NCBI GenBank assembly: GCA_963677595.1
Contig: OY782041.1
Location: 1,984,001-2,048,000, forward strand
Length of the DNA stretch: 64,000 nt
Direction of reading: 5' to 3'
Source: Spirochaetia bacterium
GTDB taxonomy: Bacteria; Spirochaetota; Spirochaetia; CAKZLE01
Shown: piece by piece, positions 3,394-7,392 of the stretch
How the letters are laid out: every line of letters begins with the position of its first letter
Numbering within the stretch: the first letter of the stretch is position 1
Notes under the pieces: model-generated
What the model saw: the letters and a program-made list of their open reading frames with translations, nothing else
The model's database searches: none
What the model was told of the DNA's origin: nothing
Translations under genes and position numbers: made by a program

Positions 3394-4395
3394 CTATTTC
3401 AGGCCTGCTTCCTCATAATACTTCAAGGCACCGGGATGTATAGGAGCGGAGAGTCCTGCGAGCAGGTCCTCTTTCTCCAGGGTCGCATAGGCCGGGTGGA
3501 GTTTCTTGAACTCGTCGAAGTTCTCGAAGACCTCCTTGGTGATGGCATACACGATATCATCCGATACGTTAGCGGAAGTACAGAGAGTAGCCTTCACGCC
3601 GAAAGTAGCGACGTCAGAGGAGTTTGAGGCATTGGGGTAATCGCTCACGGCGATGGTCGATTTTGCGTAGTAGGGGTACTTGGCGATCAGTGCATCGACT
3701 TCTGAGCCCTCGATAGCTACGAAATGTGCTGCCCTTGCACCTGCGGTAGCCTCCTTGAAGGACCCGTTCGGGTGTCCGACCGTGTAGAAGTAAGCATCGA
3801 TCTGCCCGTCCTGGAGTGCCCCGGCAGCCTCGGCAGCCTGGAGCCCTTCAGCCCTGAGGTCGTTCTCATAGTCGATCCCGAAAGCTTCCAGGGCGTCGAG
3901 GGAGTTCCCTCGCTGTCCTGAACCGGGGTTCCCGATATTGACGATCTTTCCCTTCAGGTCCATGAAGCTGTCGATACCTGCATCATCTGCAGCGAGCAGG
4001 GAGACTGACTCGGGATGGATGGAGAATACTGCCCGGAGATCCTTCTGTGCGTTACCGTCCCATTCAGCCATACCGTTGTAGGCCTGGTACTGTCGGTCTG
4101 ACTGTACGATACCGAACTCAAGGTCGCCGGAGATGACAGCATTCACGTTGAATACCGATCCGCCGGTTGACTCTACGGTCGCCTTCAGGTTGTATTCATC
4201 TGATTTCAGGTTCACCATCTTACTGATCGCGCCACCGGTCGGGTAATAGACACCGGTAACACCGCCGGTCCCGATGGTCACGAACTGCTTGCCTGCAGGT
4301 GCACCACTTTCTGATGACCCACCGGCGAACACTGTCCCGCCGACGAACAGCAGGATGATCATGAGGGAGATGAGACTCAACAAACTCTTTTTCAT
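3394..4395 (-). CDS. TAXI family TRAP solute-binding protein (copy 1)
   Basis: TIGTGGVTGVYYPTG, ESTGGSVFN, GNPGSG, PIHPGA motifs. Start moved to ATG 4395 (MKKSLL) behind GGAGG; signal peptide ends VFAGGSSE. Confidence 0.93.
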   Translation of the reverse strand: MKKSLLSLISLMIILLFVGGTVFAGGSSESGAPAGKQFVTIGTGGVTGVYYPTGGAISKMVNLKSDEYNLKATVESTGGSVFNVNAVISGDLEFGIVQSDRQYQAYNGMAEWDGNAQKDLRAVFSIHPESVSLLAADDAGIDSFMDLKGKIVNIGNPGSGQRGNSLDALEAFGIDYENDLRAEGLQAAEAAGALQDGQIDAYFYTVGHPNGSFKEATAGARAAHFVAIEGSEVDALIAKYPYYAKSTIAVSDYPNASNSSDVATFGVKATLCTSANVSDDIVYAITKEVFENFDEFKKLHPAYATLEKEDLLAGLSAPIHPGALKYYEEAGLK

Positions 4396-4585
4396 AGTAT
4401 CCTCCAAAAAATGAATGGTTACCCGACGATCAGGGAATGACAGTCAGGTAGATACAAAAACAACGAGTAACCATTTCTGTATATTTATGCTAATTCTATA
4501 CAATTTGTAACAATCCTGCAAGGGCCTGATAAGCACGTACTGAGTGGGGCAGGATACGGGAGGTGAAGGACGGCCTGGCTGCCGG

Positions 4586-5593
4586 TCAGTAAGAGATGCC
4601 GGCTTCTTTGTAATAGCGTTCAGCTCCCGGGTGGATCGGGGCGGTGAGTCCCGTGAGCAGGTCCTCCTTCTCGAGTACCGCATATGCTGGGTGCAGGGCC
4701 TTGAATGCCTCGAAATTCTCGAAGACCTCTTTCGTGATCGCATAGACGATCTCGTCAGATACCGAAGCCGAGGTGCAGAGGGTCGCCTTCACCCCGAAGG
4801 TGTTCACATCCTCGGTGTTGGATGCGTTCGGGTAGTCTGCTATGCTGATCACCGAGCTGACGTAATAGGGGTTCTCGCTGATCATGGTCTCGATCTCGGG
4901 ACACATGATATCGACGATATGGACATGCCGTGCCCCGGTCGTCGCTTCCTTGAAGGAGCTGTTCGGATGGCCCACGGTATAGAAGTAGGCATCGATCAAC
5001 CCATCCTGCAGGGCACCGGCAGCTTCTGCTGCCTGCATGTTCTCAGCACGGAAATCTGTCTGGTAGTCGATCCCGCAGGCAGTCAGTGCATCGATCGCAT
5101 TGGCCCGCTGCCCGGAACCGGGGTTCCCGATATTGATGATCTTCCCGGCCATGTCCTGGAGGGCATAGATGCCGGAATCATCCGCGGCGACGACCGAGAC
5201 CGACTCCGGATGTATCGAGAAGACCGACCTGAGGTCCTCCTGCGGCAGTCCTTCCCATCTCCCTTCCCCGTGACTGGCCTCGTGCTGGATGTCGGACTGG
5301 ACGATGCCGAACTGGAAGTCACCGGCCATGATGCCGTTCACATTGTAGACCGAACCCCCGGTCGACTCCACAGTCACGCGGAGGTTGTACTCATCACCTT
5401 TCGCATTCACCGTCCTGCTGATAGCCCCGCCGGTGGAGTAGTAGACACCGGTCACTCCGCCGGTCCCGATGGTCACGAACTGCTTCTCTGTAGGTCGCAG
5501 GTTCTTTGCGGCTTCATCTATCTTCGAGCAGCCTGGGATGATGGCCAGGATGATCAGGAGCAGGGACACCGATACCAGTCGGGTTCTTTTCAT
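4586..5593 (-). CDS. TAXI family TRAP solute-binding lipoprotein (copy 2)
   Basis: Same TAXI motifs, clear paralog of 3394-4395; lipobox-like IIPG-C after a hydrophobic signal. Confidence 0.93.
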   Translation of the reverse strand: MKRTRLVSVSLLLIILAIIPGCSKIDEAAKNLRPTEKQFVTIGTGGVTGVYYSTGGAISRTVNAKGDEYNLRVTVESTGGSVYNVNGIMAGDFQFGIVQSDIQHEASHGEGRWEGLPQEDLRSVFSIHPESVSVVAADDSGIYALQDMAGKIINIGNPGSGQRANAIDALTACGIDYQTDFRAENMQAAEAAGALQDGLIDAYFYTVGHPNSSFKEATTGARHVHIVDIMCPEIETMISENPYYVSSVISIADYPNASNTEDVNTFGVKATLCTSASVSDEIVYAITKEVFENFEAFKALHPAYAVLEKEDLLTGLTAPIHPGAERYYKEAGISY

Positions 5594-5734
5594 AGGTTCC
5601 TCCGGCAGTCGGGAACATAAGATCAGTGTTCGGGTAGGGTATACAAGTCATGTTCTCGTAAGATTATATACAGCGTATCATAGGAGGAGTGATAATAACA
5701 TAGCTGGACTGGTGGATTTTTCTGGCTGGGGAGG

Positions 5735-6292
5735 CTAGCTCTCCAGCTCGCGGCGGATGGCACGCAGGGCAGCTTCATCCAAACCCGTGATGGAAGCGAT
5801 GTCATAAAAGGACATGTGCCGCCCCAGCATCCGTCTGGCCATCTCCTCTTGCGCCTCAGCCCAGCCCTGGTTGTATTCCTTGGAGTGAGTATCTGCCTCC
5901 CCTGCAGCTTCCTGCTCTTCTTCAGCTGGAAGTTCTCCATCCTCTATGAGCTGTTTCTTGATAGACAGGATCTGTTCTTCAGAGAATCTCGTGATAGTGA
6001 TGATATCATCGATCAGGTAGTTGTTTCTCAGCAGATACTTGACTCGCTCGACTTTCAGGGCTGCCTGCGCTTCAGGTTCAGCACGCACAAGACCTTCTGC
6101 ATATGCTGCCTCATAGGCTTCCGTTCCCTTTTCCGCAAGTTCTCTAGCATAGGCTTCAGCAAAGCTTTTTATAAAAGCATCATAGAAGGCATCTTCGTAG
6201 ATACCAATCTCCCGAGCTACTGCATCAATCTCTGCCAGTCTCCGTCGCTCTTCATAGTACTCCCATTTTTCCTTCTCACTGATGTGTATCAT
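5735..6292 (-). CDS. Protein homologous to the Rpn C-terminal domain (RpnS-like, two tandem helical repeats)
   Basis: N-terminus MIHISEKEKWEYYEERRRLAEIDAVARE aligns with Rpn MVHVSADEELRYAYVRKSMAELDEAARE. Contains two (EG..A..ML...I..I..ITGL/F..E.I/L) HTH-like repeats. RBS GAGGAGG. Confidence 0.7.
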   Translation of the reverse strand: MIHISEKEKWEYYEERRRLAEIDAVAREIGIYEDAFYDAFIKSFAEAYARELAEKGTEAYEAAYAEGLVRAEPEAQAALKVERVKYLLRNNYLIDDIITITRFSEEQILSIKKQLIEDGELPAEEEQEAAGEADTHSKEYNQGWAEAQEEMARRMLGRHMSFYDIASITGLDEAALRAIRRELES

Positions 6293-6361
6293 TGTTCCAT
6301 TGCCTCCTCGAAGGCCAGATGCTCATCTCTTAAGTTCCTCGACAAGCTGAGCCTCTGGCTT

Positions 6362-7291
6362 CTAGCCCAGGATCTTCAGGACTTCAGCCTCTGTTAAGTC
6401 TGCCACACGTGCGATCATGGATATATCGGAGGATTCAGCCGCAAGCCGCTTGACTGTCGCTTCCTTCTCTTCTTCCTTGCCTTCAGCTTTGCCTTTAGCC
6501 AGGTATGTAGTAGCAGTATCCTCTACGAGTGCCGCCTCACGGGCAGCTTCATCGAGTTCCGCCATACTCTTCCGGACATATGCATACCGGAGCTCTTCAT
6601 CCGCACTTACATGTACCATCTGCTTCATCGCCTCCTCGAAGATCCTGTTCTGATGGGAGAGTTCTTCCAGCCCTTCCAAGTCTTCAGCCCTGAAGAACCT
6701 CGTCCACTGATCCCTCAGGCTTTCGGGATCATCATGGTCCATACGCTTAAGTTCTACGAAGACCATCTCCATGAGGTCCGTGAACTCTGCTTTCGTCTCC
6801 CGGTCATGGAAGGTTATGTGCCGTATATAGGACCTGGTCGTATCCTGCTTCTCTTCGTAGTTCTCTTCGTTCTTCTCTTCTTCCGTCTCTATCAGATTAT
6901 AGCATAATAAGTTCAAGGTTACAGCCCTGCCGGACTTTGCATATCGGTCTCCCCTCTTGATCTGGCTTGAGTAGAGGCGGGCAAGGTAATGCAGGCTGCG
7001 GGGAATGATGTCAAACTCATTGCGGACCTGGATCTCGACATCGATGTGTTCGTTGCCTGCGGTCTTGACCCGCAGGTCAAGGCGGAAGAGCTTGTTATCG
7101 GGGTAATCTCGCTCCTTTTCCGTAGTCATGATCGTGATGTCCTCCGGGCTCTTCGGGGAGATGTCGAGGTAGGCGGTGAGCAGGGAGAGCAGCAGGTCCT
7201 TGTTCTCCTCCTTGGTGAAGATCGCCTTGAAGACGATGTCACTGGTAAGCGGCAGTAAGGTGCTGTTCCCGTACTTGATCTCTTTAAACAT
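6362..7291 (-). CDS. Rpn family recombination-promoting nuclease / PD-(D/E)XK nuclease (PDDEXK_2-like)
   Basis: SDIVFKAIF, RLDLRV, IDVEIQ, RSLHYLARLYSSQ, FVELK motifs and a GKAEGKEE C-terminal tail. Start ATG 7291 after AGGAGG. Confidence 0.9.
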   Translation of the reverse strand: MFKEIKYGNSTLLPLTSDIVFKAIFTKEENKDLLLSLLTAYLDISPKSPEDITIMTTEKERDYPDNKLFRLDLRVKTAGNEHIDVEIQVRNEFDIIPRSLHYLARLYSSQIKRGDRYAKSGRAVTLNLLCYNLIETEEEKNEENYEEKQDTTRSYIRHITFHDRETKAEFTDLMEMVFVELKRMDHDDPESLRDQWTRFFRAEDLEGLEELSHQNRIFEEAMKQMVHVSADEELRYAYVRKSMAELDEAAREAALVEDTATTYLAKGKAEGKEEEKEATVKRLAAESSDISMIARVADLTEAEVLKILG

Positions 7292-7361
7292 GCGGGTTCC
7301 TCCTGTGTTCGTATATCTACTACAAACAGGATTCAGGTCGATTTGATTCAAGAATAAAGAA

Positions 7362-7392
7362 GACCTGTGGAAATTGGGTATTTCCACAGGTC
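7362..7392 (-). terminator. Intrinsic terminator after metA
   Basis: GACCTGTGGAAAT / ATTTCCACAGGTC 13-bp stem followed on the minus strand by TTCTTTATTCTT. Confidence 0.8.

Follow-up and report, generated by a model that had tools for sequence, protein, structure and literature searches.

A spirochaete Rpn nuclease locus with a predicted internal antitoxin, a likely non-cognate downstream RpnS-type gene and an upstream motif common to DNA-uptake genes

We analysed a stretch of 64,000 nucleotides (nt), the window, from a Spirochaetia bacterium (GenBank assembly GCA_963677595.1, contig OY782041.1, positions 1,984,001 to 2,048,000 of the forward strand). The genome is a single contig of 4.33 Mb, and the relatives with a taxon name are Spirochaetales or Sphaerochaetaceae. 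The window carries, on the reverse strand, a gene for an Rpn-family nuclease (W, 7291-6362), the full-length product of which is referred to as RpnL and the internally started C-terminal product as RpnS, followed by a second, RpnS-type open reading frame (ORF2, 6292-5735). The paralogous rpn loci of the same genome are designated A to G. W matches PF12784 with 140 bits and TIGR01784 with 110 bits (cut-off 52), and no match to PF04754 (Transposase_31, YhgA-like) was found at E<=1; the YhgA-like assignment in a preliminary description of this DNA is thus replaced by PF12784. Residues D18, D72, E86 and R98 are invariant in 19 homologs of W, and Q88 is retained in at least 90% of them; the catalytic residues presumably correspond to D14, E86 and Q88 of RpnP2. 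In the structure model of W, which has a predicted local distance difference test score (pLDDT) of 79.7, residues 232-286 form a long helix.

The stretch FEEAMKQMVH inside W begins at 6640 and contains a Shine-Dalgarno (SD) sequence, GAGGAGG (6637-6631), ahead of in-frame ATG codons at 6628 (M222) and 6619 (M225), as the preliminary description had pointed out. Calculated against the genome's own 16S tail, the SD of M225 has a dG of -14.6 kcal/mol; an SD of -12 or stronger precedes 0.7% of 5027 internal ATGs, and the strongest internal SD lies at the same position in 7/7 intact paralogs. M243 of W, which is nearer to the four-residue repeats (tetrads), has a weak SD (-3.5). Of the Rpn genes of relatives, 60 of 79 contain an internal SD of -10 or stronger, versus 63 of 494 control ORFs, although many of these relatives are kin. 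These results support the intragenic start proposed earlier, and W is predicted from its sequence to encode an RpnS of 85 amino acids (aa) beginning at M225. A sigma-70 scan gave 3 sites versus 1.9 expected, with no internal promoter for RpnS. The number of tetrads varies, by one between W and A and by two between B and C. Nearly all spirochaete PF12784 genes among the relatives L029-L125 have an internal SD with a start some 85-120 aa before the C-terminus; its position depends on the clade, and in most other families it lies about 15 residues further upstream.

The DNA 3' of the W stop codon repeats the FEEAMKQMVH region (6641-6621 versus 6313-6293, 86% identity; repeat D13), with a local alignment score of 56 that none of 500 dinucleotide shuffles reached (maximum 50). 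A permissive DNA alignment of the whole tail with the whole downstream region scored 169.5, not above the shuffles (mean 164), and significant homology is confined to the head of this comparison, about 135 nt long. In the junction, two indels (+1 and -1) disrupt the upstream frame and leave the GAGGAGG intact (6309-6303); a mini-ORF encoding M-E-Q (6300-6289) overlaps the ATG of ORF2 as ATGA. All these features of the junction had been described correctly. A contig of 961 nt from sequencing run X1 (depth 41) is identical to 5423-6383, free of differences and gaps, so the indels are not assembly errors, with the proviso that X1 is possibly the source sample itself. Short contigs within ORF2 are also present in run X2, which belongs to another study. 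A second assembly encodes the 185-aa ORF2 protein with one substitution, and the protein cluster has 2 members.

Several properties of ORF2 are those of an RpnS-type gene. Its SD has a dG of -11.6 kcal/mol, its frame stays open in 0 of 5000 shuffles, and its codon adaptation index equals that of the RpnS segment (0.60 each). Residues 32-73 show a four-residue periodicity (9 of 11 residues hydrophobic in one phase, reached by 0 of 10,000 shuffles), and ORF2 carries about 10 tetrads in all. By sequence, ORF2 gives a weak, two-stretch match to TIGR01784 (22 bits) and none to DUF4351/PF14261, whereas its second cap matches an RpnS profile at 96% in hhalign (E 2.5e-9); the Rpn profile itself matches 7TH0, the E. 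coli RpnA-S structure, weakly (E 0.048). A single-sequence model of ORF2 (pLDDT 62.9) consists of a long helix and two three-helix modules, in agreement with the two terminal helical repeats noted beforehand. Residues 133-178 superimpose on 7TH0 over 46/46 positions with a root-mean-square deviation of 1.1 and a Z of 6.0, joint first of 48,161 chains, a score that is middling for a small helical domain and tied with a TrpR-like helix-turn-helix; Foldseek returned no match at E<=0.001. Overall, the modelled RpnA-S fold supports the view of ORF2 as a free-standing RpnS-type ORF.

An important distinction of ORF2 is that its head is not a close copy of the head of the RpnS immediately upstream. 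Over the first 35 codons, the tail-only copies at loci E, F and G share 92, 101 and 104 of 105 nt with their own genes (88-99%). ORF2 matches W at 57 of 105 nt (54%; 14 of 35 aa) and D at 65 of 105 nt (18 of 35 aa). In a tree of 13 rows, from which the near-identical heads of A, B and C were excluded, ORF2 joins D with support of 100/98, and each of the copies at E, F and G groups with its own gene. The approximately unbiased (AU) test rejects a grouping of ORF2 with W, its expected cognate (p=0.0125). Between ORF2 and D, the proportion of synonymous differences exceeds that of nonsynonymous differences (pS 0.70, pN 0.30). A recent self-duplication of the W tail is rejected by the identity of 17 out of 47 aa between ORF2 and that tail, by the grouping with D and by the AU test; the earlier description of ORF2 as a duplicate of the C-terminus of W is corrected in this respect.

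The tails of these genes are mosaic. Within the first 600 nt, comparison of W, A, B and D in 50-nt windows gives identities of mostly 88-100%, with dips to 70-78%; the sequence of D departs from that of W at nt 600, and the sequence of B does so at about 800. A leftover W cap lies 3' of the stop codons of C and D, the protein P0010 combines a D head with a W cap, and P0008, an Rpn fragment on another contig, has a W head and ends in the last 20 aa of ORF2. Paralog C itself (genome 1075931-1077022, +) is broken by a stop codon and an insert, leaving a C-terminal ORF of 217 aa; P0008 and P0010 are similarly N-truncated proteins from other assemblies. Inhibition by RpnS is strictly cognate, and one extra tetrad abolishes inhibition of RpnC, according to the available text of Zhong 2023 (10.1101/2023.05.02.539157); for this reason ORF2 is unlikely to inhibit W, and with a head 40% identical and about 10 tetrads it is probably unable to neutralise it. 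The idea of a nested antitoxin caught while becoming its own gene is not supported, in view of the same cognate rule and the affinity with D: ORF2 is likely a non-cognate spare left by tail swapping.

Tail-only ORFs are a recurrent feature of this genome. It has 8 rpn loci, and such an ORF is present at W, E, F and G, i.e., at 4 of the 7 intact loci; locus A has a decayed tail-only copy and keeps a decayed version of the W/ORF2 junction. In the survey for such pairs that had been suggested, they proved rare among relatives. It covered 76 loci with at least 400 nt downstream, 3 shorter ones being left out; a cognate tail-only copy follows the gene at 1 locus, a remnant of the cap at 1, and repeats of the gene, whole or truncated, at 4. 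At L049 the tail-only equivalent is decayed. Besides the window locus, three rpn loci of the genome (849421+, 615397+ and 326618+) are followed by near-identical tail-only copies with tetrad numbers other than those of their parents; at 326618 the parent has had its last residues frameshifted by the duplication.

The presence of RpnS as a separate downstream gene is not new. The available text of Zhong 2023 (PMC10400941) reports ypaA and rpnCSs, to which its SI Fig. S3 adds RpnFSs and RpnP1Ss, so that such genes of E. coli are published for RpnC, E, F and P1; it further reports that YpaA/RpnESs is made, that downstream RpnS genes arise by local duplication, and that they are lost by deletion or by fusion to the N-terminal domain. 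A separate RpnS gene is also noted in the Koonin commentary (PMC10400984). ORF2 resembles these genes in being a tail-only gene directly after rpn with its own SD. It differs in that it does not cluster with its upstream gene, as the published RpnCSs and RpnESs do (Zhong 2023, in the part available), in its two caps, about 10 tetrads and 185 aa versus about 50, and in giving no match to DUF4351/PF14261. The RpnL/RpnS pair of W shares with the described Rpn systems the PD-(D/E)XK domain, the internal SD and start, the long-helix tetrads, a 7TH0-like three-helix cap, the many paralogs and the sporadic insertion. The differences are the family (PF12784, not PF04754), a predicted RpnS of 85 aa with an extra head of about 35 aa, a location among metA and TAXI/TRAP genes with no defence match in the 5 proteins tested, and a competence-type motif upstream.

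This motif, (T)TGAATCA-N15-TGTT, stands shortly 5' of the start codon in 8/8 rpn genes, including lineages that are only 38-44% identical; at W (7351-7325) it falls outside the coordinates of the preliminary description. The pattern has 19 sites in the genome versus 0 in a shuffled Mb, and a joint position weight matrix (PWM) gives 23 matches at 15 bits or more versus 2 in a shuffled genome. Outside the rpn genes, the motif occurs 5' of ssb (and a truncated copy), a RecQ-family helicase gene, dprA, radC, recA and a ComF-like gene that scores below the curated cut-off. ComEC is present in the genome, and the motif of its gene is lower-scoring (14.8); lexA has no motif upstream. The genes comEC, ComF-like and dprA are transformation genes. 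Since the motif is common to rpn and DNA-uptake genes, the rpn genes are likely to be competence-induced.

The candidate regulon sites are at genome positions 3568084+, 3869529-, 4089729-, 1097187+, 3849927-, 2891763+ and 374155+. At comF and radC the ATG lies about 10 nt past the motif, which suggests near-leaderless mRNAs, and at 2879932 (+) the ssb promoter and first codons are present a second time, in truncated form and broken up by unrelated DNA. The motif also occurs, at 2708777-, 138848-, 2893745-, 149894- and 3040660+, 5' of three uncharacterised exported proteins (700, 380 and 319 aa), a LuxR-type regulator and an MqsA-type toxin-antitoxin (TA) pair; the three exported proteins are candidates for new competence genes. 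One motif-bearing gene was searched in the Atlas, and only unnamed spirochaete clusters were returned. The shape of the motif, -35/N16/-10, presumably resembles that of alternative-sigma promoters. The sole sigma factor of extracytoplasmic function (ECF) size (133316-133846, -) has no motif directly upstream and is followed by an anti-sigma-like gene (132670-133329, -) with a zinc-binding-like N-terminus, judged by eye; it is a candidate for the factor that reads the motif.

We also compared the motif among orthologs. A PWM built from six com/repair genes scores 8/8 rpn genes of the genome at 20-33 bits, and 21 of 2897 upstream regions reach 12, true sites included. Among family relatives, from which 4 truncated or partial loci were excluded, a score of 12 is reached at recA in 4/4, dprA in 2/4, radC in 2/4 and comF in 1/5, with matching offsets; all five comF sites have the same offset. 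Of the rpn genes of relatives, 3 of 53 reach 12, namely the three closest. It should be noted that the non-rpn training sites were first found with a pattern derived from rpn genes, which deprives the PWM ranking of independence; independent evidence comes from the identity of the motif-bearing genes and from the conservation of the motif at orthologs. The strict pattern with a fixed spacer is found at 2 of 63 rpn and 1 of 61 com sites of relatives. A relaxed pattern, post hoc in that the spacer was loosened after inspection of the data, occurs 5' of 15 of 78 relative rpn genes (12 of 36 genomes), compared with 0 in coding, 0 in reversed, 3 in opposite-strand and 0.6 in shuffled controls, and 5' of 7 of 61 relative com genes; three genomes (G008, G186 and G172) have it at both rpn and com genes. 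In G029 a variant common to dprA and 4 of 5 rpn genes was recognised by eye, of which the relaxed pattern caught 1 of 5 rpn and not dprA.

The features of the locus are collected in Table 1. In 3 of the 4 family relatives that have metA, a TAXI gene directly follows metA with no rpn gene between them (1 of 5 relatives gave no metA match), and the rpn cassette is therefore an insertion. Among 15 repeat pairs there is no flanking inverted repeat, and the empty sites are too diverged to reveal a target duplication. The neighbours are metA (methionine) and TAXI/TRAP genes: two tandem paralogous genes for TAXI-type TRAP solute-binding proteins (window 3394-4407 and 4586-5593, -), a pair also present in relatives, and then a fused TRAP permease gene. 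A second copy of the metA terminator hairpin together with the start of the motif is present at genome 1166458-1166512, where it adjoins, in reverse orientation, a decayed piece resembling the end of metA.

Table 1. Elements of the rpn locus, in window coordinates
Feature	Position	Strand	Remarks
Terminator-like hairpin, 3' of metA and upstream of the rpn cassette	7362..7392	-	13-bp stem and T tail
Promoter-like motif TTGAATCA-N15-TGTT	7325..7351	-	common to 8 rpn genes and comEC, comF-like, dprA, radC, recA, ssb and recQ-like genes
rpnL, 309-aa Rpn-family PD-(D/E)XK nuclease	6362..7291	-	PF12784, TIGR01784
Internal SD, GAGGAGG	6631..6637	-	dG -14.6 with the 16S tail of this genome
Predicted intragenic RpnS, 85 aa from M225	6362..6619	-	internal SD
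Non-coding remnant of the region 5' of an RpnS start	6293..6361	-	+1/-1 indels
ORF2, free-standing RpnS-type ORF, 185 aa	5735..6292	-	SD dG -11.6
ORF2 head, aa 1-31	6200..6292	-	nearest is the RpnS head of paralog D
ORF2 four-residue repeat expansion, aa 32-73	6074..6199	-	
ORF2 first three-helix cap, about aa 74-117	5942..6073	-	
ORF2 second three-helix cap, aa 133-185	5738..5896	-	RpnA-S-like

We propose, with a probability of about one half, that W is a competence-induced RpnL held by its internal RpnS, and that ORF2 is a spare antitoxin and tail donor. The inserted cassette, a PD-(D/E)XK nuclease with a predicted internal RpnS, is likely transcribed from a competence-regulon promoter; induction of the DNA-uptake genes would, judging from the upstream motif, raise full-length RpnL. 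By analogy with Zhong 2023, the RpnS from the internal start would attach to the long C-terminal helix and hold its own nuclease inactive. The paralogs exchange tails at two breakpoints, one upstream of the internal start and the other inside the cap, and the non-cognate ORF2 was likely left when the W tail was replaced via recombination with a paralog. ORF2 most likely survives as a reserve antitoxin for Rpn proteins with other tail alleles, and as a source from which tail segments are drawn.

A number of points weigh against this proposal. The head tree is based on 105 nt and has long branches, and the FEEAM SD region at the ORF2 junction resembles W, not D. A full-length Rpn with an ORF2-like head was found neither in 595 pattern matches on metagenome contigs (0/595) nor among 7993 longer proteins, and a search of ORF2 against 1.84 billion representatives returned itself and 2 weak matches only, which leaves a cognate target of ORF2 hypothetical. 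Tetrads begin about 40 aa after the RpnS Met in W and 32 in ORF2, versus 8-20 aa in the published proteins (Zhong 2023, 10.1101/2023.05.02.539157, in the text available). The middling Z and the rpn-derived choice of training sites, given above, belong here as well. The motif was not seen at the rpn genes of several families, and its co-presence at rpn and com genes over 19 more distant genomes is not significant (3/3/2/11, p=0.26). Among competence genes, ComEA was not found (the HHH_3 match sits in an ORF of 724 aa, which is not ComEA-sized), and no ComM match exceeded the cut-off.

A different trigger is conceivable, if doubtful: the motif may mark a LexA-independent regulon of DNA damage or general stress, with Rpn acting in anti-phage abortive infection as in E. 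coli. The genes recA, ssb, recQ-like and radC serve repair too, the sites 5' of the LuxR regulator, the MqsA-type pair and the uncharacterised exported proteins would fit, as would the missing ComM and ComEA, and anti-phage activity was shown for RpnP2 (Zhong 2023, 10.1101/2023.05.02.539157, in the part available). However, comEC, ComF-like and dprA all carry the motif, and the locus lies among methionine and TRAP genes, with no PADLOC defence match for the 5 proteins tested (0/5). This alternative concerns the trigger only and is compatible with the proposed origin of ORF2.

We consider it unlikely that ORF2 is instead, as the preliminary description proposed, an old cognate second antitoxin of the ypaA-like RpnSs kind, one still able to bind the neighbouring RpnL and dampen its activity. 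Its position and SD are as in the published RpnSs genes, the FEEAM region matches W with a decayed form of the same junction kept at locus A, and the head positions S5, R11 and D23 are conserved. Conversely, the head groups with D, its 54% identity to W compares with 88-99% for the cognate heads of E, F and G, and ORF2 has many more tetrads than the single extra one that abolishes inhibition of RpnC. No likelier is the possibility that ORF2 is a functionless relic of tail duplication or swapping, open by chance or recency, the translation of which is lowered by the mini-ORF. The lack of a close homolog among 1044 candidates or the 1.84 billion representatives is in line with such a relic, as are the decayed downstream copies at locus A and L049 and the rarity of tail-only copies in relatives (1/76); nevertheless, 185 codons stayed open and the SD of -11.6 was kept while the adjoining non-coding part gained indels, synonymous changes exceed nonsynonymous ones, and ORF2 is intact in the second assembly. 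Finally, it is very improbable that a second, truncated rpn gene is present here and owes its indels to sequencing errors, the outcome that the preliminary description had set as a refutation: although one indel lies in a short A run, the identical 41x contig refutes this unless X1 shares the error, no remnant of the nuclease domain is present, and the homology begins some 60 nt upstream of the ATG, just as it does at loci E and F.

Both Zhong 2023 (in the part available) and the Koonin commentary (PMC10400984) describe the trigger of RpnL release as unresolved. Competence, Sxy and transformation are not mentioned in the available main text of Zhong 2023 (PMC10400941), nor competence, Sxy or CRP-S in that of Kingston 2017 (PMC5350276), and Rpn is not mentioned in the accessible text of a 2025 review (PMC12378983). 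We found no literature joining the Rpn family to competence or comEC upregulation, rpnA to Sxy, or ECF sigma, competence and dprA in Treponema. The Sxy regulon of E. coli is reportedly one that may include predicted transposase genes of the Rpn family; in that case the connection would already be known in part for E. coli, and the spirochaete would be an independent case with another regulator. A comparable arrangement is that of H. influenzae toxTA and E. coli hicAB, in which a toxin is under a competence promoter and the antitoxin has a separate internal route; the toxins are unrelated, and CRP-S/Sxy sites are confined to a gammaproteobacterial clade (10.1101/330480, in the part available).

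The tail-only downstream gene itself is already known; what is new here is a non-cognate, double-capped tail gene together with a competence-type promoter. Polymorphic toxins such as CdiA-CT/CdiI have orphan toxin-tip/immunity cassettes, and ORF2 resembles them as a non-cognate downstream module able to recombine into the upstream gene; here, however, the module is the regulatory tail only, the nuclease domain is constant and nothing is exported. By extension, and at present as a rather speculative suggestion, the Rpn nucleases of these spirochaetes could belong to the natural-transformation regulon and form a polymorphic self/non-self system, each one induced during DNA uptake and restrained by its own tail, with tails shuffled among paralogs and with non-cognate orphans such as ORF2 giving immunity against Rpn alleles that enter by transformation and serving as donors for them.

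The role of the Rpn family is split between 'recombination-promoting' and 'anti-phage'. The non-cognate downstream RpnS permits a simple test for retained orphan antitoxins. The motif common to com and repair genes outlines a candidate spirochaete competence regulon, and it offers a testable trigger for RpnL, namely transcriptional induction during competence.

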